DNA of 64,000 nt from Eledone cirrhosa (Eukaryota). The stretch's first letter is position 1, and the number at the start of each line of letters is the position of its first letter. Where the stretch lies: positions 96,658,001 to 96,722,000 of the forward strand of contig OZ024740.1 in NCBI GenBank assembly GCA_964016885.1, given 5' to 3'. Made by a program: the position numbers and the translations under genes. Below, piece after piece: positions 13,002-54,520 of the stretch. A model generated the notes under the pieces. The model saw nothing but the letters and a program-made list of their open reading frames with translations. It was not told where the DNA came from and searched no databases.

Positions 13002-13495
13002 ATGGCCGAAGCTTCTTCACCAAAATTCGAAGGAGGAAAGGGGAAGATAAACTTACAGCTTCCCCCTGCCACTGTCACAGTAGCAGAGGTCAAGGAGAAA
13101 GGTCAGCCAGAGGAAGAATTCTCTCCACCTGTTAACCGACAACTTGACGTTGCCATGGCAACAACCCAAAGAACCAGCAGCAACAGCAACAACAACAGCA
13201 ATGCGACGGACGAAAACAACACCAATAACAATAACAACAACAACAAGACCAATAACGGTGACAACAACAACAATGATAACAACAGCACCACCAACGACAA
13301 CAACACAAACAAAAAACATTTCTCCTTCGCCGAGACGACAAGGAAAACCCTCGACTATCTGACACAACTCCAAGCTCCCCAACCACACAACACACTGATG
13401 CCCCTACACTTCCACAAACCACCACCCCACCCAACAACCCATCCCCCACCCTAATGGAAATTGTGCAGCCCGATACCCGGGACGCAGAGAGGTAA
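13002..13495 (+). pseudogene. ORF1 remnant of copy B (Asn-rich N-terminus joined to C-terminus)
   Basis: ORF 13002-13454, then MEIVQPDTRDAER* in another frame that matches IEIEQPD..KR* of copy D; no zinc knuckle. Confidence 0.65.
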
Positions 13496-13519
13496 GTGCC
13501 TTTTCTCTTCACCACCAAC

Positions 13520-16500
13520 ATGGCTATGCTAAGAGTAGGCTGTTTAAATGCGCGTGGCCTGGGCTCAACTTGGAAGCAAGCAATGCTTCTAAATGACCTC
13601 AGGTCACAACGTATAGATGTGATGGTTATTTGCGAGGCCCGGATCAGCAACGTGCGACAGCTGGCCCCCACCTTTGATGACTTTGAGATGCACGCATCTC
13701 TCTGTCAGCCCGGAGGTGGGGGTGGAGTTGTCGTTCTGCTGCAAAAACATCTGGGTCTCGCAACACAGATGGTACATTTGGACCCGGAGGGTCGACTAGT
13801 GGTTATGGACCTTGGCAGTGGTAAAGGCGGTGCGTTTAGGTTGGTAGCCGCCTACGGCCCTTTCGGGTCAATGCGGCCGGACTTCTTCCATCGTCTGGAG
13901 ACTTTTCTAGGGACGTCCCGCTCCTTGCTATTAGTGGGGGACTGGAATGGTATCCTAGATGCACGCTGGGACTACGTAGGGGCCTGTCCCGATAGAGAGG
14001 GGTGTAGTAGCCTCAAAGGGTTAATCGGTCGATTTGACCTGGCCGATAGATATCGACTAGATTTTCCGACTGCGCCAGCCTGGACTTGGGCAAATCGTAG
14101 CGGAACATCTAGGTCGTACCTAGATAGGTTCTTAGTTAGAATTAAGGATAAGGACTTTTTAAGTTGTCCAAAAATGCGCATGGTTGGCTATTCAGACCAC
14201 AAATTAGTGAACTGCATGGTCAACCTTGACAGAACTCATAGACAGGGACCCGGTTACTGGAAGCTCAACTTGTCCTTTCCGGCAAGTAAGGCTTACAGGA
14301 ATCGGATTAGCACTTTAGTTAAGGAGCGGTTGACGGGCGCCATCGTCAACAGCAGGTGGTGGGGATCTCTCAAAAGAGAGATTAGAGTAGTCTCTATAGA
14401 ATTTAGTAAGGAGTTAGCCTCCAATAGAAATAGGAAGGAAAGGGAGTTGGTAGATAGTGTAGAAGAGGCAATTAGAAGCGGCGACGTGGCCAGAGTGCTA
14501 GCGTCGAGAACGGCCCTGGGCCAGTTCCTCGACGCGAAACACAAAGGCTGCATCGTCCGAAGCAAAATACGTGCTCTGGGAAACGAGGGGACCACAGCTG
14601 TTAGCTGGGCTCGCGTCACAGAAGCCAAAAGAGGGAGCAGATCCACTATCCGGTCTTTGCGAGACCAGGATGGACGGGTGATCCTTGAACCTAAGCAGAT
14701 GTGCGAGGCTTTTCAAAAGCACTTTGCCGAATTGTTCGGAAGGGGCGGGGGGCTGGTTGGGGACGTGGACTTCGGTCCATACCTCGACGGCCTGCCGCGT
14801 CTCTCGGACAGGGAGGCGAAGTCCTGCGAGGAGCCGATTTCAGCCGCTGAGATAGAGGACGTGCTGAGCCAATGCGGCAAACGCAAATCCCCGGGTCTCG
14901 ATGGTCTTCCATACGAACTATATCTAGCTATGCCGGACTTGTTCCCCGAACTCCTCCAGGCGGTCTACTGCAACTGGCGACAGAACGGGAGAATTCCCTG
15001 TGCTGTGACCAAGGGCGTAGTCACGCTAGTGAGGAAGGACGAGAACAAGGGGGACGATATAAATAATTTCAGGCCCATAACTCTGCTAAATACAGAGTTA
15101 CAGATTTTGGCCAAGGTGCTAGCAAAGAGGTTGGCGCTTGTCGTGGGCAACCTGGTGGGAGATGTGCAGACATGTGCTATCCCGTCCAGGTCCATCCACG
15201 ATAACCTCCACCTCATGCAATACATCATAGAGAGGGTTGGGAACGAACCCGGCTTTGGTGGGGCCCTGATCAACTTGGATCAATCTAAGGCATTCGATAG
15301 GGTCGACCATAGTTACCTGGATGCAGTGCTAGCGGCGGCAGGCTTCGGACCCGTTTTCAGGGGCTGGATCAATGCCATGCACAGCAGCCGCATCTGCTCT
15401 AGGGTCAAGGTGAACGGCTACCTCTCGGAGCCGTTCGAAATCGCGCGGTCCATCCGACAGGGGTGCCCTCTCTCCTCCCTTCTGTATGTAGTGACTCTAG
15501 AGCCACTGCTGCGGAAGTTGGAGTTGTTGCAGGGCATCCCGTTGGAACCGGGATTGCGGAAAGCGGTGCCAACCTACGCCGATGACGTAACAGTAATGGT
15601 GTCGACCGCCTCGGAAATCGGGGCGATCGGCACCTTACTGGAGGAGTACGAAAGGTTTACAGGGTCTAAGCTGAACCGGGACAAGTCGATCGGTCTGCAA
15701 CTCGGCACGTGGAGGGGCAGATCGATGCCCTCCGATGGCGTCGTCGGGCGCTAGACGGAGGGCCCGGTGAAATTGCTCGGGGTCTGGTTCGGACCAGACC
15801 TCCAGGTGGAGAAGAACTGGGGTGAGGTGACGAGCAGGGTGTTTGCACTGACCCAGAAGTGGGCCGAGTGCAAACTGTCATGAAAGGTCGGACGGAGGTG
15901 GCGAACACTTATATAGCGTCCGTCATCTACTACCGCCTGACCGTGGTGCCTTGCCCAAGGGAAACGCTCGCCAAAATGGAGCGCGCACTCTTCCAATTCC
16001 TTTGGCAGAAGCGGGCTCCTATGGTGAGGAGATCCATCTGCTGTCAACACCCTACGAAAGGAAGGCTGGGGATGCCGTGGCTGATGATACGTAAACACGC
16101 ATTAAGGCTACGGCACCTTCAGGTATTCCTCTCCGGTCAACCGGTGTGGGCCCCGTTTGTGAGGCGAGCCTTTCCGAGACTCGTCTCACTCACCGAGCTG
16201 CAATCCTGGGTCAAGCAAAGACCGAGAAAACTGGGCGCCTGGCACACCGAGTGTGCCCAGGCGCTCACGGCTCTCTGGCAGGCGGACCCGGCTGTCAGTG
16301 GAGAATCCACCTCGTCATTCTATAGAGGGCTGGTGGTTAGCAGGTGCGACGACGCCCTCGGAGAAGCCCTAGGCATGGAGGAAGACGAACTGGCCAACCT
16401 GTTCGGTAGGACATTCAGCTCGGGACCCATGGATAACTTCCAGAGGTTCCTGGCCTGGCAATGCTACAGAAGGGCTCTGCCCGTTCGAGAAAGGCTCTAC

Positions 16501-16956
16501 AGACACGGGCGCCCGGGTAGGGACCCATCGAAAAAGGTCTGTCCCAGATGCGTGTGCGACGAGGAAACCGTTGCACACGCATTGGTACACTGCTCGGGCA
16601 TTGCCGATCTGTGGGGCTATGTCGAACAACTGCTGTCAAGGGTGGGACCGATCCGGTTGACCACCGAGTCTATTGTAACGATCAAGCCGCCTCCCCTCTT
16701 CAAAAACGAAGGAGAGGCGGTGTTTCTGTGCGTAATAGCCATGGCGAAAGAGGTCGTATGGTGGACGCGTCTGAAAGGACTGAGGTCAGAGACCTTTCTC
16801 TCTGGCCAACAACTGGTCCGTTTCTTCCGATATCATTTCGGAAGAAGGATCAGGATGGAGAGAGAGGTGCTGCACCCCAGCCGTTTCTATGAAAGATGGG
16901 TGAAAGTGGCGAGAATGGCCCGTGTGAATGGGCCTTCACTCTACATCAGACTATAG
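13520..16956 (+). pseudogene. ORF2 endonuclease/reverse transcriptase with two lesions
   Basis: Motifs GCLNARGL, GDWN, YLDRF, SDH, PGYWKLN, SPGLDG, FRPITLLN, KAFDRVDH, RQGCPLS, YADD, LLGVWF; stop at 15752-15754 and 1-nt frameshift near 15880 (compare CTCTCGTTGAAAGGT in copy D). Confidence 0.93.
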
Positions 16957-18400: not shown

Positions 18401-21400
18401 ACTCGGTTCACCCAATAAAAACGGATCAACACATCTTCTTCCCCCATATATGGGAAGAAGATGCTACAAAATAAAAATAACCAGGATCCCAGCAAAGGAC
18501 AAAATATGGTGGATCCAAAGCTGCATCCCGAAGAAGGATGAGGACACCCTCCTAGCTGTAGACAGGTCAGACCGGAATAACTGGTTTGGAACCTGCATCG
18601 AGGTTCTGGTACAAATGAGGCCAGAGAGACTTGAGAAAATACCGGACAGGATCGTCCTTGAGGAAGAAGTCATCTCCACTTTAGTGGAGGAGAAAAGATC
18701 CCAGTGCCATAAGTGTGGGAAAACCACACACTTAAAGGCCTTTTGCCCTCTCTTAAACAAACCGAGGACAAACAAGGTGTGATTACCAACACCAAAACCC
18801 CAACATCAACAGCCCAAATCAAACACAACACAAACACCTGCAACATCCACTCCCTCACCACCACGGACCAGAGACAACCACACACACAACATCCCACTGA
18901 AAAACCCTCCATTGCCTCCTCCCACCTGTAAAATACTTCCACAAGCACCTGCACAAACACTCCACTACACAACATACCCCTCCCATCCAACCCTGATTCA
19001 GAAGTCTCAGACACGGGAACCTCTCATCTCCCAGTCAGAATGAAGTCGAAACCCAACAATCCAAAAAACAAAAAAGAGACAAAAAAAACACAAGAACAAA
19101 AACATCTACAGAAAACATGCACACACCCAACCCCATCATAAACACACCGCCACAAACGACAAACACCTCAACAACACAATCACCACTAACACAACCAAAC
19201 ACTTCACAAACAAAACAAACACCCACCCCACCACAATCAGAAACCCCAACCACAAAAGGAAAACTACAAACAGAAACAGCACATATAAAAAACAAAACAT
19301 ATTACACATACATAAGAACAACAAACAAAGAATTGGTAGAAACTGTCCGAAAGGACCCTACTATCCAAACGGAGGAAAAAACTCCCGCACCAATGACCCA
19401 CCCCAAACCTCAAACTGATCAGGGTAACAACCCTACAACATGAAACATTGAAAGGGACCTTCCAACATGATGTGCAACCCCCCACCCTTTGCCAAAAAAG
19501 CCTTAACCGTGTCCTCCTAAAATAATTCCCTCCCTCACCAAACACCCCTAATCTAGACATAGAGATCGAACAACCCGACCTCCACTAAACGAAAAGGTAA
19601 GTGTTCTTGCCTTTTCTCTCCCTAACTCTTCTTCACCAACATGGCGACTATACAAGTTGGATGTTTGAATGTACGTGGCCTGGGTATACCCTGGAAACAG
19701 GGCCAGCTTCTAAATGATCTCAGCTCACAATGTATAGATGTGATAGCCATCACCGAGTCCAGCATTCACGACAAGCAGCAGCTAACCCCCATGTTCGATG
19801 ACTTTGAGATCTACGCATCTCCTTCTCAGCCAGGAGGTGGAAGGAGAGTTGCTGTTCTATTTCGAAAACTCTTGGATCTCAAAGCATAAACGATTCACTT
19901 GGACCCGGAGGGCAGCTTGGTGGTTCTGGACGTGAATGGTAGTGAAGGTGAAGCTTTCAGACTGCTGGCAGTATATGCCCCGACAGGTACATTGCGACCA
20001 GAGTTTTTCAAGCGTCTGGAGCCATTCCTGGGCTCGTCTCCCTCCTTGGTGTTAGCGGAGGACTGGAATGGCATCTTAGATGCACGTTGGAACTATGTAG
20101 GAGCTTGTGATGATAGAGGAGTGTGTAATAGCCTCAAACTTCTCATCAGCCAATTCCATCTGGCTGATAGATATCGACTAGACTTCCTAAGTGTACCACT
20201 GTGAACGTGGAGCAACCGTATTGGGTCTTCTAGATCGTATTTAGATATATTTTTAATTAGACAGAAAGATAAGGAAACATTAAGCTGTCCACAAGTGCAC
20301 ATGGTTGCCTATTGAGACCACTAATTAGTCACCTGCATAGTCAACCTTGATAGAACAAATAGACAGGGACCCGGATACTGGAAGCTAAGCATGTCGCTTC
20401 CGACGGGTAAGACCTACAGTAAACGGATTCGCACCTTAGTTAAGTGCCAGTTGACGGGGGCGATCATTAACAACAGGTGATGGAGCTCTCTCAAAAGAGC
20501 AATTACAATAGAATCGATAGTATTTAGCAATTAAAACCGTAAAGGAACTGGTAGCTAAAGTAGAAGAGGCACTTAGGAATGGCAGTACAGCTGACGTGCT
20601 AGCGGCGAGAACGGCACTAGACAAGTTCTTCAACGACAAACACGAAGGTTGTATTGTCAGAAGTAGAACACCTGCTCTAAGAAACGAGGGAGCCAAAGCT
20701 GTGAGCTGGGTCCGAGTGGCAGAGGTGAAAAGTGGCAACAAATCCACAATTCGTTCTTTGCAAGACAAAGGTGGACGCGTTCTACTTGAAACCAAGCAGA
20801 TGTGCAAAGTCTTCCAGCAGCATGTTTCACAACTGTTCGGGCAACGTGGTACGTCAAGGGGGATGATGGACTTCAGCAGCTACCTCGACGGCGTACCACG
20901 ACTCTCGAGCACGGATGCGGAGAGCTGCGAAAGACCCAACACGGCGAGCGAAATAGAAGATGCCCTAGGCCGCTGTGGGAAACGCAAGTCTCCCGGTTTA
21001 GATGGTCTACCCTATGAATGTTACATAGGCATGCCGGACTTGTTCTCTGGCGTCCTCGAAGCTGTCAACAGCAACTGGCAGCAGAACCGGAGGATTCCGA
21101 GTTCTGTAGGTAGAGGCGTAGTAACGCTGATCAGGAAAGATGAGAACAAGGGGGATGAAATAAGTAATTTCAGCCCCATAACTCTGCTCAAAACAGAGTT
21201 AAAGATTTTGGCCAATGTGTTAGCAGCGAGGCTGGCCCTTGTCGTCGAAAACCTGGTAGGGGAACCGCAAACGTGTACAATCCCGCCCAGGTCCATACAC
21301 GATAACCTCCACGTCATGCGATACATCATAGAGAGGGTGGGATGTAAACCTGGCTTGTGTAGGTCTCTTCTCAATTTAGATAATTCTAAGGTATTTGATA

Positions 21401-22520
21401 TGATCGACCATCAATACTTGGAAGCGGTTCTCAAGGCAGCGGGCTTCGGTCCCGTCTTCAGAGGCTGGATCGCTGTCACGCACACCAGCATCTGCTCGGC
21501 AGTCAAGGTGAATGGATACCTATCGGAGCCATTCCAAATCATGCGTTCCATCAGTAAGGGTGCCCTCTCTCGAGACATTACTGCGGAAGTTGGAGCTGTT
21601 GCAGGGTATCCGGAATGAACCAAGACTGTGGAAAGCACCGTAGGCCTATGCCGACGATATAACCATAATAGTGTCGACAACATCGGACATTGGGGTAATC
21701 AGGGATACGAACCGTTGACAGGAGGAAGCCTAAACCCAAACAAGCCTGTCGGTTTGCAACTCGGCACATAGAGAGGCAAACCCATGCCTTCTGACAGTGT
21801 CGTTTGATGCGGGACGGAAGGACCGGCGAAATTGCTCGGGGTCTGGTTTGGTCCAGACCTCCAGGTGGACAAGAACTGGAACGAGATCACTGCGAAGGTG
21901 TTTGCACTCACCCAGAAGTGGGCTGAGTGCAAACTCTCGTTGAAAGGTCGAGCAGAGTTTCGGACACTTACTTAGCGTCCGTCATCTACTACCGCTTGAC
22001 AGTCGTGCCTTGTCCCCGCGAATACCTGACCAAAATGGTCGCCTACTCTTCAAGTTCCTCTGGAAGAAACTGGCTCCATTGGTGAGGTAATATGGTGGAC
22101 GTGGTTAAAAGGACTGAGGGCAAGCAGCTTTCTCTCCGGACAACAACTTATCCCCTTCTTTAAGTACCACTTCACAAGAAAGGTGAGAGTGGAGAGAGAC
22201 GTACTACACCCCAGCAAATTCGCTAAAAGGTGGGTGAATGTGGCGAAAATGGCCAGGGTGAATGGGCCATCTCTGTATATAAAGCTGTAGGTTGAGGAAG
22301 ATAAACAGAGGGAATACAGGAACACCTACAAAACGTGTTCCTCATTTGATGGTTGTTCTATCCACGGTTGTTCTATCCCCCTCCCCTAATGCAGATTTCA
22401 ATTGTTTTATTTTATATAGTTTATTGTTATTTATCATTAGAAAATATTTTATGTAAAACCCCCGCCGTCACGTATTGTAATATCCCATGTGTGTACGCCC
22501 CTATGGCAAATAAAGAAAGA
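18401..22520 (+). mobile_element. Tx1-clade copy D, truncated within ORF1, degraded ORF2
   Basis: ORF1 knuckle CHKCGKTTHLKAFC (CX2CX4HX4C); ORF2 starts at 19641 MATIQVGCLNVRGL; YADD near 21647; deletion near 22085; AATAAA at 22509 then TATC. Confidence 0.92.
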
Positions 22521-23959: not shown

Positions 23960-24012
23960 ATTATATTGTGTCTGATGAGGACGTAATGTTGTACATCCGA
24001 AATATGTATAAT
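23960..24012 (+). ncRNA. Atypical or degenerate minimal hammerhead-like motif
   Basis: CTGATGA 23972-23978, stem II GGACGTA/TACATCC, GAAATATGTA; stem I not in canonical register. Confidence 0.5.
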
Positions 24013-30300: not shown

Positions 30301-31640
30301 CTAGCAGATGTACCCGGCGTAGCTCGGGGTTTGAAATAATGCTAAGAATATACAGCTAGGAAGTAAAAGAAGAACATCATTTGTCCCCAACCTGTCAAAA
30401 TAAGCAGACGTCTTCAATAATTAATGCAAACGAATATTTAATGCAATCTGTGTATACATAAACTATGTTGATAAAGAAGGAAAACACTGAGCAGGATGTA
30501 GTTATACAGATGATTAAAGGCAATACACGTTGCACATCTGTAAAAAGACAGGCAGTTTTGCTAAATACAAAACGTTGTAATGAAAGCAGAATTGTATACA
30601 AACACAAAAACAATGAGAGTAGAATAAGAGAACATATATTCTTTGAGAGCATCCTTTGCTGTGTATGTTTAAATTTTGAACTTATAATCCGAAATATCCT
30701 GCATGACCTATTCATTGGTATGTTTTGTAATGAGTAAGGAGAAGTCAAGGCAGAGCTGTAATAAGTTTTTTTGTTAACACTAAAGCACTTCAGGATAGAC
30801 TATATTCTTTGTTTTTCTTTTCGGAACAAACGCAAAGAGATTATCTCTACTGTCAACTGGTGAGCAGGCAACGTAGAATTGTCCGTGCGAAAAGCAAGGT
30901 TCATCCAAGTGAATTCCAGTGACGGACAGAGTTTGACCTTGCGACTTGTTTATAGACATCTTAAAAGCAACACGAGGGGGAAATTGGGTTCGGAAAAAGG
31001 AGTAGGGAGTATCCACGTCTGATGTAGTCAGGCTAATTTTTGTTAATATAACATCCTCGCCTTTTCCACATCCGGATAGATTGGTAGCGTCAATACTAAG
31101 TGGAGACAGTTTTTTAACCACAAGTCGTGTACCATTGCATAGTTTTGGAGGAGTGATATTTCTCAGCAAAATAACTGGCGTTCCCTCTTTCAGAACAAAT
31201 GTATTTGGAGGTAAACCAGAAGGATTTAAAGAATTTAGAAATGTAACTGGATAATTGACCGCATCCTGTGGATCACATACAGTATCAATATATTCATATA
31301 TCCGTGGACATCCAGCAACATCATGTTTGCAACCCTTGCTGTAAATCCACCATCTTCGCGTCTTCTCCGGCGATATAGTGGCTCCCTGTCATGACCAGTC
31401 TGAGTGTCAACATGGCTTATGAAAGTTTAAAAAATGTAAAAGTTGTAGGTCCTAATGGTTTGAATGGAAAGTCCCATAACGATTGTTTTAAACATAAACC
31501 AACCATCATCAAAATCTCGTCAATTCGAGACGGCTGCGAGATTAGGCTCTTAACGCGAAAATTAACACTTAATATCGTGAAACTTTTCTGGTGGTAGGAG
31601 AGGGTGGTGATAGGGATATGTGGCGATCATTTGTTGATGG
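30301..31640 (-). mobile_element. Helitron, internally deleted
   Basis: Minus-strand 3' hairpin CCCGAGCTACGCCGGG then CTAG|T; helicase fragment inside; 5' limit approximate. Confidence 0.85.
30780..31318 (-). pseudogene. PIF1-like RepHel helicase C-terminal fragment
   Basis: FLNSLNPSGLPP, LLRNITPPKLCNGTRL, QFP..AFKMSINKSQGQTL, FSHGQFYVACS, TKNIVYPEVL. Confidence 0.92.
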
Positions 31641-36868: not shown

Positions 36869-37047
36869 CCCCCTGAAAGTCTAAGCAGATGCTTGAATTC
36901 ATAGAAACAGCAGTTAAATATTCCATAAATCTCACCATATAGTGTGAATAAACAGGAACTACAGTTGGAAACGTATAAACACTAAATGATGGTGGGCTTA
37001 CAATGTATTTGACAATATATCACTACCATAATTGGTGGCTTTACTAA
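36869..37047 (-). repeat. Left arm of an ~180-bp inverted repeat
   Basis: Reverse complement of 39880-40058 with scattered mismatches. Confidence 0.9.
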
Positions 37048-37416
37048 TATATATATATATATATATATATATGATACATTATATAAAATGGAAGATGAAT
37101 AAATATACATATATATATATATAAAAACAAATAACGAAACGAAATTAAATTTCGTTTCGTTTGTAACTCACTTTTGTATGACTGACGCTTAAACAATTAA
37201 GTTAAAGATGTACATCCATATATGTATACTGAAATACTAGTATGTATATGAATACACACACGTATACATATGTAGATGTACCAAGTTTTTTCACTGGTCA
37301 CTTTACTGTGAGTGGCCAGCTATTCTGTATGTAAACACACAGACAAACCGGTTTTTAGAGTCATACTGGTTTTTGAGGAAACACCTTTCCTCTATTCTCC
37401 AGAAAGCCAGACAAGG

Positions 37417-37461
37417 AATATTGAACTAGTTTCGTTGTTGTTACAACTCATCAGCAATATT
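37417..37461 (-). ncRNA. Minimal type I hammerhead ribozyme, copy 1
   Basis: Reverse complement of 38155-38199. Confidence 0.88.
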
Positions 37462-37883
37462 TACCTATCTTCCGGCCTCTCTAGAGAATCGTAAAAGCAC
37501 ATATCGTTATATGCTTTTTCTATGAAAATTAGTAGTGGGCAGACTAATTTGCATAGAGTGTGAGTAAGTACCGGTTCAACGGAGACGATAAAAACAAATA
37601 ACGAAACGAAATTAAATTTCGTTTCGTTTGTAACTCACTTTTGTATGACTGACGCTTAAACAATTAAGTTAAAGATGTACATCCATATATGTATACTGAA
37701 ATACTAGTATGTATATGAATACACACACGTATACATATGTAGATGTACCAAGTTTTTTCACTGGTCACTTTACTGTGAGTGGCCAGCTATTCTGTATGTA
37801 AACACACAGACAAACCGGTTTTTAGAGTCATACTGGTTTTTGAGGAAACACCTTTCCTCTATTCTCCAGAAAGCCAGACAAGG

Positions 37884-37928
37884 AATATTGAACTAGTTTC
37901 GTTGTTGTTACAACTCATCAGCAATATT
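37884..37928 (-). ncRNA. Minimal type I hammerhead ribozyme, copy 2
   Basis: Identical to copy 1, 467 bp downstream. Confidence 0.88.
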
Positions 37929-38154
37929 TACCTATCTTCCGGCCTCTCTAGAGAATCGTAAAAGCACATATCGTTATATGCTTTTTCTATGAAAATTAGT
38001 AGTGGGCAGACTAATTTGCATAGAGTGTGAGTAAGTAACGGTTCAACGGAGACGATAAAAACAAATAACGAAACGAAATTAAATTTCGTTTCATAGAAAA
38101 AGCATATAACGATATGTGCTTTTACGATTCTCTAGAGAGGCCGGAAGATAGGTA

Positions 38155-38199
38155 AATATTGCTGATGAGTTGTAACAACAACGAAACTAGTTCAATATT
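38155..38199 (+). ncRNA. Minimal type I hammerhead ribozyme, copy 3
   Basis: AATATTG-CTGATGA-GTTGT(AACA)ACAAC-GAA-ACTAGT-T-CAATATT; palindromic stem III; predicted cut after 38192. Confidence 0.9.
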
Positions 38200-38621
38200 C
38201 CTTGTCTGGCTTTCTGGAGAATAGAGGAAAGGTGTTTCCTCAAAAACCAGTATGACTCTAAAAACCGGTTTGTCTGTGTGTTTACATACAGAATAGCTGG
38301 CCACTCACAGTAAAGTGACCAGTGAAAAAACTTGGTACATCTACATATGTATACGTGTGTGTATTCATATACATACTAGTATTTCAGTATACATATATGG
38401 ATGTACATCTTTAACTTAATTGTTTAAGCGTCAGTCATACAAAAGTGAGTTACAAACGAAACGAAATTTAATTTCGTTTCGTTATTTGTTTTTATCGTCT
38501 CCGTTGAACCGGTACTTACTCACACTCTATGCAAATTAGTCTGCCCACTACTAATTTTCATAGAAAAAGCATATAACGATATGTGCTTTTACGATTCTCT
38601 AGAGAGGCCGGAAGATAGGTA

Positions 38622-38666
38622 AATATTGATGATGAGTTGTAACAACAACGAAACTAGTTCAATATT
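38622..38666 (+). ncRNA. Hammerhead copy 4 with C3>A core mutation
   Basis: ATGATGA instead of CTGATGA at 38629; otherwise identical. Confidence 0.85.
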
Positions 38667-38888
38667 CCTTGTCTGGCTTTCTGGAGAATAGAGGAAAGGT
38701 GTTTCCTCAAAAACCAGTATGACTCTAAAAACCGGTTTGTCTGTGTGTTTACATACAGAATAGCTGGCCACTCACAGTAAAGTGACCAGTGAAAAAACTT
38801 GGTACATCTACATATGTATACGTGTGTGTATTCATATACATACTAGTATTTCAGTATACATATATGGATGTACATCTTTAACTTAATT

Positions 38889-38959
<71 letters not shown>

Positions 38960-38962
<3 letters not shown>

Positions 38963-39623
38963 TAAAACAATCTCTATACCTCTCATTTATATTTATACTC
39001 GGATTCTTTTCCTAGAGTGCTTAAACTATCTGTGACTAATCCCGGTTTTTTTTTCATAAAAACTGTGATAATTATTGCTATTTTGCTGAACTCCTTCGTA
39101 GAGTTTTTTTCAGAATGTATTTGACTGCTATTTCTTGTAAATAAACATTTCACTTCCATCCTGACGTCACTAGCCCCGTTTTTTCCTCATGTGCTTTTTC
39201 ATAAATACACATGAAGACGAACTAGCCAGTTTAAGAACTCCCTTTTTCGGATTATATTACTGTGAGAGCCCTGGTTTCTGTTGAGCTCTGCTGATGAATG
39301 AAATCCAACCGTGACCATCTCCACTGAAAGTTTTCATGAAATAGTTTTTTAAGACTATACAGAGCATTTGATGTTATTCCAAATTGAAGGATAAGTGTTT
39401 CAAACTTTATTTTATCATGAGTTAAAGGTCTATAGATTTTTCCCTGGATTTTACTAAATTCTGTGGATGAATTTATATCCTGATTCTCTTTTGAGATGAG
39501 TTTGAGTTATTTTTCCTAAATCTTTCGTTAACTACTTTTCCCATCTTGACGTTATAGTCGCATATATGTTATAGAATGCCGTTAGCTTCTTGCTAAAACA
39601 ATCTCTATACCTCTCATTTATAT
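38960..39623 (+). mobile_element. 631-bp-period non-coding element with 33-bp terminal direct repeat and HHR
   Basis: TGCTAAAACAATCTCTATACCTCTCATTTATAT at 38960 and 39591; embedded in (TA)n. Confidence 0.8.
39285..39365 (+). ncRNA. Complete type I hammerhead ribozyme
   Basis: Stem I GCTCTG/CAGAGC, CTGATGA, stem II ATGAAA/TTTCAT, GAA, stem III ATAGTTT/AGACTAT, AUA cleavage triplet (cut after 39359). Confidence 0.92.
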
Positions 39624-39727
39624 ATATATATGTATATATATATATTGATAGGTTGGAAAATCACTGAGGAAGGACTATTCTTTTCATATGTAAAGCATGT
39701 GCAACCACGCAGCACTCAATTCTTGTC

Positions 39728-39785
<58 letters not shown>

Positions 39786-39803
39786 TTCCATTTTCTATAA
39801 TGT

Positions 39804-39879
<76 letters not shown>

Positions 39880-39883
<4 letters not shown>

Positions 39884-40058
39884 GAAAGCCACCAATTATG
39901 GTACTGATCTATTGTCAAATACATTTTAAGCCCACCATCATTTAGTTTTTATACGTTTCCAATAGTAGTTCCTGTTTATTCAAACTATATTGTGAGATTT
40001 ATGGAACATCTAACTGCTATTTCTATGAATTCAAGCATCTGCTTAGACCGTCAGGGGG
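39880..40058 (+). repeat. Right arm of the ~180-bp inverted repeat
   Basis: Reverse complement of 36869-37047. Confidence 0.9.
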
Positions 40059-52626: not shown

Positions 52627-54520
52627 TAGAAACGTTGTACATCAATATGGCACGCCTATGTCATTCTCAGGAATTATGGGTAAAGTTAAAAATTAACAAC
52701 CAATTCTTACAACAACTCCGTAACAGAATAAAGGAGTATGTAAGCACCAACGACATCCTGGTGCATTCGGGCAACATTGGAAACCTCTATTTCGTCAATC
52801 CTGACAGATACTATACACTGATCAGGAGCAGTCTGATCTCCGCCTACAAAAAGGCTAACCATTAAATAATCCATGACATAAATCTAGATGGACAACAAAT
52901 TACCTCCAACCTCAGGGTCGCGAACTGCACTGAACCCCTACGGACTACCTACTTCCCTCTGAAGGACCACAAATCCGACATCGACCGCAAATCATCCATC
53001 AGGCTTATAAAACCGACGAAGTCGGACATACGGAATATCAATAAGAACATCCTAGACCGCGTTATACCAAAAGTTAAGCCAAACGCGAGACTTAGCATTT
53101 GGGTCAGCACCCAGGAAGTCAACTCGTGGTTCAGGAATATTGAGCACAAACAGGACAACAAATTCATCCAGTTCGACATAGAGAGCTATTACACCTCTAT
53201 TACCTTACCGCTTTTTACGGCCGCTTTGGACTTTGCCCAAACACTCACACACATCACCGACCAGGAAAGAAACATAATCCTCCACGCCAGGAAGACAGTC
53301 CTCCTTTTCAACAATTCTAAGAGGATGAAGAGAGCTCCCGACTACCGCTTCGACATCAGTATGGGCGCGACAGACTAGGCCGAGGTGACAGATCTTATAG
53401 GATTATTCCTCCTATATAAACTCACCGAAATGTTTCCTCCATTCGGCGGTGGATTGTACCGAGACGATGGGTTCCTTACCCTCAAAGGTTACAACCCTAG
53501 TACTACAGACCGGGCCCGTAAACAACTAATGAACTTCTTACGGGACTGGGGTTTTTAAATCACCCTACAAACGTCCCTAACCCGAGTCAATTTTCTGGAC
53601 GTTACCTTCAACCTCGAAAATGAACTGTACTACCCATACAGGAAACGAAACACAACCTTCACTACATCCACCGCCGCTCTAACCATCCTAGGAACATTAC
53701 CAATAACCTGGTTAAAAACATCTCCCTCCGTATATCTCGTTTGTCCGCTAATGAGCAGATATTCGATGAACATGCGTCTCATTATTACAAGGGCCTTAAG
53801 CGAAGCGGCTTTCGGGAGGTAATCTCCTTTTACCCAACTTCCCTTAGCGGAACCAGCAAACGACGCCGCTGCTCACGCCACATAACGTGGTTCAACGCTC
53901 CCCACAATGCTGAGGTGGTAACACCAATCGGGAAAATCTTCTTTAGGCTCCTCGAATAACACTTCCCACCACAACAATGCTACCACAACATAATCAACAA
54001 AAACACTATCAATCACTCCTACACCCAACTTCGCACAAAACATCGCCTCCTCAAACAACAAGAAACTCAACCCCTATGGAAGAAACAACCTAGACATTAG
54101 TGGCGAGCCGACCAGGAGGTGTAACTGCCCTGATAGATCTAAGTGCCGCCCTCAACAACAGATGCCAAGAACGTAACTTGATCTACCAATTGAACGTGAG
54201 TACGGAAACCTCCAACAAAGCCTAAAAAGGATTAACCGCTTGTGACTTTAAGACCCGGCTCTACTAACACCGACACACGCTCCGAAACCCGTCCAGGTGA
54301 CATGCCACTAAACTTTCGGGCCACATCTGGGACCTCCAACATAATAACATAACCTAAAATCTTACTTGGAGTTTACTGACCAGGGCGCTGTCCGTGTAAC
54401 TTATGCTCGGAGGAAACATCCAACGGATGTTTACGAAGGACCAAATCCTAAACAAAAAATACAAACTTGTAACTGCATGTAATCACCGATTGCGTAATAC
54501 TTACCTCGCCCTCAAACCTC
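52627..54520 (+). mobile_element. Penelope-like element P2, 5'-truncated, decayed
   Basis: LKDHK..IRLIKPTKSDI, FIQFDIESYY, FDISMG, GLYRDDG, NFLDVTFNL, SNHP, ITWFNAP, CNCPDRSKC. Confidence 0.92.

Follow-up and report, generated by a model that had tools for sequence, protein, structure and literature searches.

The insertion analysed here, which lies in a window of 64,000 nucleotides of Eledone cirrhosa DNA, very probably belongs to a family of non-autonomous hammerhead retroelements with a 631-nt unit that are moved by PLE-type copying into (TA)n. We regard this 631 family as a new member of the non-LTR (animal) retrozymes, a known class. For the window copy itself, we lean, cautiously, towards an origin in which a Penelope-type RT went round an RNA circle that had been made by the ribozyme. 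In this model, arrays with at least two ribozymes would be transcribed, and the transcripts would be cut to 628-631-nt monomers and ligated into circles. The PLE endonuclease would nick (TA)n, and the RT would start at an internal UA-like site, possibly by pairing there with the nicked strand, and then run round the circle until drop-off, at about 0.25% per nt. Rejoining of the 5' end to the target would frequently use TA microhomology. The window copy would have halted 33 nt into the second turn. As it carries one ribozyme, it cannot by itself release a unit-length circle and would be a product, not a source, of circles.

The first-pass annotation of the window had described 33 nt recurring exactly 631 bp apart, a non-coding unit, no evident likeness to a neighbouring 467-bp unit and (TA)n on both outer flanks, and all of these were borne out (Table 1). 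The direct repeat is exact over 33 nt with a period of 631, and its first T and last five letters are equally assignable to the (TA)n flank. In the 631 unit, the longest stop-to-stop frame has 84 aa and the GC content is 33%; thus, the unit is non-coding with a GC content under 50%. No similarity to the 467-bp unit was found beyond that of shuffles. The upstream flank is (TA)34.5, and the downstream flank is a short and imperfect TA run of about 27 nt. No target-site duplication (TSD) was found around the window copy, where (TA)n would hide one. Positions within the unit are given below as q, obtained by subtracting 38960 from the window coordinate. No 10-nt stretch of the unit matches (TA)5 better than q28-37, with 9/10 letters. 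The long hairpin on the 3' side of the ribozyme has similar stem folds in a sister subfamily and is a possible candidate for a protein-binding element.

Table 1. Features of the 631-unit insertion in the window and intact candidate helper elements in the genome
Feature	Position	Strand	Remarks
Complete insertion: 5'-truncated copy (1.05 units) of a non-coding repeat with a 628-631-nt unit	38960..39623	+	
5' partial unit (33-nt redundancy), copying halted just past one full unit	38960..38992	+	read through in arrays
Internal TA-like site where family 3' ends fall; putative reverse-transcription start	38988..38997	+	9/10 match to (TA)5
33-mer at the 3' terminus; its end is the fixed 3' junction of the family	39591..39623	+	
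(TA)n target, 5' side; doubles as 3' tail of the neighbouring 467-bp hammerhead element	38892..38960	.	
Imperfect (TA)n target, 3' side	39619..39645	.	
Type I hammerhead, 7-bp stem III, 28-nt loop II	39285..39365	+	predicted cut after 39359
Stem I, 6 bp	39285-39290/39360-39365		
Core CUGAUGA	39291-39297		
Stem II, 6 bp, 28-nt loop	39298-39303/39332-39337		
Core GAAA	39338-39341		
Stem III, 7 bp including one U-G	39341-39347/39352-39358		
Long hairpin between ribozyme and 3' end	39401..39520	+	z -4.1 (40 shuffles per window), strongest among 16 windows
Neptune-like PLE (L220)	G000:C1:147238000-147247900		intact, 4202-nt unit
Hydra-type PLE (L171)	G000:C1:91471500-91481400		intact, high-copy, head-to-tail tandems of ~3.5 kb

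A search of the 3.0-Gb genome with the unit returned 2536 candidates, and among the 39 scored there were 94 matches. Full-length matches are 98-99% identical, and many are in tandem with a spacing of 628-631 nt. Because such identity marks a young family, its ends and haplotypes can record the mechanism of copying. The 3' end is fixed: it falls at the internal TA-like site, 263 nt beyond where the ribozyme is predicted to cut, and runs into (TA)n. Exact junctions from unit q31 into (TA)n number 771 genome-wide, and exact read-through from q31 into the next unit occurs at 254 sites; the common 26-mer has 1278 genome sites, 253 of which are neither junction nor read-through by exact pattern. All of the distinct arrays in the first 30 loci (21/21) end at q31-37 in (TA)n, the query for these loci having contained the 3' end itself. 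In the sister subfamily (~82% identical), the same 3' end was recognised in 26/30 loci by eye and in 22/30 by regex, in a sample chosen by an internal probe in which five loci represent a single insertion that was duplicated and two belong to the same array. On these counts, the 33-mer is the element's own 3' end. Four sequencing runs of unrecorded kind contained the 631 family and its variants, and no empty allele was seen in them.

The 5' ends, by contrast, are scattered and favour TA microhomologies (q593, q602). Thus, the permuted start points that the first-pass annotation had envisaged apply to the 5' ends and not to the fixed 3' end. The sample comprised 80 of the 86 junction sites on contig 1, leaving out the window, two arrays and the last three sites, and became 77 loci when duplicates of neighbouring insertions (L073, L095 and L102) were dropped. 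In these loci, which were picked by their 3' junction, copy length ranges from 26 to 2955 nt (median 229), and the stopping rate is flat at 0.19-0.32 per 100 nt throughout. Copies longer than one unit make up 13/77, versus 13.6 predicted from the stopping rate over 100-631 nt, and 7/77 are long enough for two ribozymes; the window copy with its 1.05 units is one draw from this spread. (TA)n with n of at least 4 is present at the 5' junction in 52/77 loci. There is a mild excess of 5' ends 26-35 nt from the start site (8/77, short copies), and such ends were counted by hand in 4/41 other long arrays, versus about 1.5 expected. A PLE "tail" as the source of the 33 nt was considered and rejected, this excess being too weak for a rule and lying on the opposite side from the published tail. 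Other observations on the flanks are inverted flank duplications at three loci (L002, L070 and L101) and a 5' junction (L045) at which a 73-nt copy of the 631 unit joins near-terminal Hydra pseudo-LTR (pLTR) sequence via a 6-nt microhomology, either by a template switch or by insertion with loss of the Hydra end.

The type I hammerhead that had been recognised in the window was confirmed as complete, with every core nucleotide and three stems in place. The standard hammerhead numbering is used, and the core nucleotides are taken in their general role; from the cleavage triplet AUA the cut is predicted after A39359. Stem III is counted as 7 bp because an eighth pair leaves a 2-nt loop in the window copy, and its U-G pair is a C-G pair altered by a C-to-T change in this copy. 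Between the young family and the 82%-identical sister, the commonest letters differ at 6/81 ribozyme positions and at 87/550 positions elsewhere, and there is no difference at the 12 core positions or in stems I and III, with a chance of 0.001-0.016 by the background taken. This retention of the core and of stems I and III across subfamilies supports the predicted ribozyme beyond chance. Stem II contains one two-sided change between the subfamilies (U-A to C-G), a single inherited change that is the whole basis of its covariation. The first pair of stem II is standard in 5/23 aligned variants (window copy included) and non-standard in 18/23. Within the young family, no selection on the ribozyme was detected (inherited variants 1/25 versus private variants 12/180, P=1) in a test that had little power and in which four core positions were indexed one base off. 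In Rfam searches, nothing in the window matched at the gathering score, and the 631-unit ribozyme had no match at E<=5 either; at E<=5 HH9 was matched in the window only by the ribozymes of the 467-bp unit.

Fragments of 93 and 121 nt adopt the hammerhead fold at minimum energy, with a stability that does not exceed that of shuffled sequences (z -1.3 and +0.4); a 150-nt fragment takes a different fold. When three natural units were folded as circles, stem III formed at 0.83-0.98 but stem I at only 0.14-0.25, which suggests that the whole unit may weaken the ribozyme. As for the earlier statement that stem III is long enough for monomeric cleavage, stem III is real, but stem I forms at only 14-25% in the whole unit. 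Loop II (39304-39331) is nearly unchanged between the subfamilies, and part of it is complementary to 39279-39283, just 5' of stem I; this complementarity may reflect a pseudoknot or else the inhibitory interaction of the full-unit folds.

Copying proceeds through the predicted cut. No stop lies within 10 nt of it in the 36 copies reaching that point (upper bound 8%). Genome-wide, with subfamilies pooled and only TA-joined ends counted, there are 13 such 5' ends at the cut, all of them in family members, versus 2271 read-throughs, and a control site with similar microhomology has 12 versus 1786 (P=0.69). The absence of any indel across the cut in 130 monomers, together with unit junctions that are exact and without an extra base in 87/87 cases, speaks against template jumps from one linear RNA to another. 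Were the template a linear monomer left by cleavage, a copy primed at q31 would end after 263 nt, and none of the 36 copies does so. Thus, the template is continuous, i.e. a circle or an uncut multimer.

The haplotypes of the arrays bear on the choice between these two templates. In 40 multi-monomer loci, variants common to at least two other loci are fixed through the array in 69/82 cases, variants common to one other locus in 7/40 cases and private variants in 11/101 cases, these counts not being independent and nine loci having been picked for being long arrays. Among 20 arrays with at least two full units, the mean distance is 3.3 substitutions within arrays versus 8.1 between arrays; L185, which has an inverted structure, and overlapping loci were left out of the array counts. 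Such near-pure array haplotypes fit the copying of one monomer several times. At the same time, variant patterns alternate in L070, L179 and L182, and L072 and L073 have equal flanks with 1.88 versus 0.88 units, and therefore exchange at the DNA level also builds and homogenises arrays.

This visible exchange is also one of the points in favour of the principal alternative, in which the family and the PLE helper are the same but the template is a linear, uncleaved array transcript with internal initiation, the ribozyme is a passenger or acts at another step, and unequal exchange keeps the arrays uniform. We consider this alternative plausible, although we do not expect it to hold. It accounts no less well for a 3' end that is fixed, for copying through the cut and for junctions without a seam, and Poseidon from the anole behaves in this way in vitro (PMC11167929, in the passages cited). 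It also sits well with a ribozyme for which misfolding is mostly predicted in the whole unit. However, repeated 5' truncation would shorten the arrays in every round of such copying, and the pure haplotypes, about a dozen by hand count, imply a repeated bottleneck of one monomer. Moreover, at some loci, such as L017, L036, L080 and L186, the 5' partial unit and the terminal unit both carry variants that the other sampled loci lack, and among the 101 loci examined no pair was seen to share the position-specific pattern of an aged array. On balance, we lean towards copying of a circle. Of the earlier proposal of slightly more than one turn of a 631-nt circle, the geometry agrees with the copy lengths and the flat stopping rate; the circularity of the template is what we infer.

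Two PLE ORFs, each present in the genome in many intact copies, are by their sequences candidate helpers for the 631 family. The first ORF has 775 aa with RT and GIY-YIG, and is Neptune-like because it has the DKG and CX4CxxC linker motifs (clade motifs in PMC8557442), an assignment by motifs only. The 3' end of this element lies ~205 nt after the start of the hammerhead core, at an internal TA run continuing into genomic (TA)n. The copy listed in Table 1 also has a second, overlapping upstream frame of 476 aa, a minimal hammerhead and frequent inverted 5' copies. The second ORF has 784 aa without a Pfam match and contains DKT, RW-basic and CxCX5C, which are given as motifs of the Hydra clade. 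This Hydra-type element ends in (TA)n ~100 nt beyond a hammerhead-like motif whose stem III is long, whose loop II is large and whose core is atypical; in L171 the 5' core reads UUGAGAAGA where CUGANGA is expected.

The (TA)n target is common to the 631 unit and to both types of element, and the likeness extends to the layout of the Neptune and Hydra pLTRs, in which a hammerhead-like motif is followed after 100-260 nt by a fixed internal 3' end running into (TA)n, with short TA microhomology at the 3' end, 5' truncation and partial tandems. The Hydra-type motif additionally shares the long stem III and large loop II of the 631 ribozyme. This shared layout would be expected if the unit were the pLTR of an undiscovered autonomous PLE and the window copy a solo or truncated pLTR. 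In addition, Xenopus retrozymes are often homologous to pLTRs (bioRxiv 10.64898/2026.07.22.740005, in the passages cited), and our comparison took in two PLE families only. Nonetheless, we find this explanation, which the first-pass annotation had offered for the window copy as a solo pLTR, improbable. Upstream, copies run into more 631 unit and never into an ORF, no same-strand PLE ORF abuts the 5' end of a copy in the 80 + 30 + 30 + 9 loci screened, and arrays reach 8.4 units. Unlike the Neptune and Hydra elements, the 631 unit has no ORF, and it has no match above shuffles to either of them, the only two PLE families compared. Two specific resemblances were tried and rejected, one of 26 nt between the 3' end of the unit and the Neptune pLTR (equalled by 25/200 shuffles) and one between the unit and the Hydra pLTR (equalled by 193/200). 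Opposite-strand copies are common in 13 Neptune stretches, whereas inverted 5' pieces are rare in the 631 family (1/80). A Neptune fragment in L134-136, which are one duplicated locus, interrupts a 3' end. Finally, that the 33-mer is a host TSD around a 598-bp insert is virtually ruled out. In its favour, duplications of 40 nt or more flank a few copies (L036 and L082), and TSDs were flagged in 4/80 loci, two of them with clear non-TA duplications; against it, the 33-mer, which had already been thought not to be an ordinary TSD, is the family's own 3' end at the 771 junctions and is read through inside arrays at the 254 sites.

The window contains further mobile elements. The 467-bp hammerhead unit is present at 37121-38893 as a tandem plus an inverted copy; its minimal ribozyme resembles the Neptune one in having a stem III made of a 4-nt palindrome. 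The end of the 467-bp unit, too, is an internal site from which the sequence continues into (TA)n, and the 631 element lies within this TA tail. In one of the four 467-unit ribozymes (38611-38682), C3 is changed to A. Inverted arms of about 200-300 nt at 36869-37133 and 39746-40058, 91-93% complementary, enclose the hammerhead cluster. A Hydra-type PLE RT fragment at 52866-53378 is 76-81% identical to its best genomic matches (21851 candidates). Non-LTR retrotransposon ORFs with endonuclease and RT are present at 13002-16956 and 20521-21618, and a Pif1 helicase fragment at 30780-31388 is probably from a Helitron. Descriptor scans without a shuffled control gave more hammerhead-like motifs of other families, at position 23972 of the window and in L218, L221, L222, L227, L228, L022, L085 and L090; on these sequences, the E. 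cirrhosa genome appears rich in such motifs.

In the following comparisons, statements on published systems refer to the passages cited from each source. Non-LTR retrozymes were defined in PMC7229834, where coral, mussel and axolotl are shown to have both cleavage and circles and a PLE is proposed to copy primed circles. Published traits of the class also include the lack of a PBS and a PPT and, when TSDs are present, a TSD length above 4 bp. Like these metazoan elements, the 631 family forms non-coding tandems with one type I hammerhead per unit and a GC content under 50%, ranges from monomers to multimers and shares its genome with PLEs. Its 628-631-nt unit is above the 150-450 bp of that account and inside the 51-972 bp of a 2026 preprint (bioRxiv 10.64898/2026.07.22.740005), which links vertebrate retrozymes to pLTRs, observed cleavage in only one of nine tested and calls the mechanism unresolved. 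A stem III of 1-2 bp is usual in animal hammerheads (PMC4209133), in contrast to the 7-bp stem III and 28-nt loop II of the 631 family. In the cited passages of the non-LTR retrozyme accounts, we found neither the fixed internal 3' end nor the (TA)n targeting. In coral, mussel and axolotl, cleavage and circles have been demonstrated, whereas the 631 family is known from sequence alone.

For PLEs, (TA)n targeting, a 30-40-bp tail and tandem non-autonomous elements are described in PMC8557442. Among the latter, MRC1 of Chlamys resembles the 631 family in having no ORF, multicopy head-to-tail organisation, microsatellite targets and low divergence. However, the 3' end of MRC1-type elements is similar to that of their autonomous partner, whereas the 631 unit has no 3' homology to the two candidate helpers, and most Chlamys elements lack the canonical hammerhead that the 631 family has. 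Naiad PLEs form partial tandems without canonical hammerheads, as the same paper states. A purified PLE, Poseidon of Anolis carolinensis, inserts equally well with a dead ribozyme and initiates internally (PMC11167929), and the authors favour unprocessed multimeric RNA as its substrate. The internal RNA start site and the AT-rich target are shared with the 631 family. However, the Poseidon start site is not homologous to its target, whereas the 631 start site resembles (TA)5, and the 30-40-bp Poseidon tail lies between two start sites, whereas the 33-nt redundancy of the 631 copy would come from its 5' stop point. No description of the 631 family or of an analysis of its ends was found in the open-access literature searched.

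The copying of animal retrozymes back into DNA is still a hypothesis, and the 631 family bears on it as well as on what PLE hammerheads do. With two intact candidate helper ORFs in the genome, the questions of whether the template is a circle or an uncleaved multimer and of which PLE copies it are directly testable. We speculate, as an extension that we regard as unlikely on present grounds, that PLE RTs copy ribozyme circles from one UA-like start and in this way build retrozyme arrays as well as the Neptune (4.2-kb unit) and Hydra (3.5-kb unit) pLTRs, a pLTR then representing just over one turn. If this is true, one-start circle copying would give PLE hammerheads their missing function, and the same genome would supply the template and two intact enzymes with which to test it.
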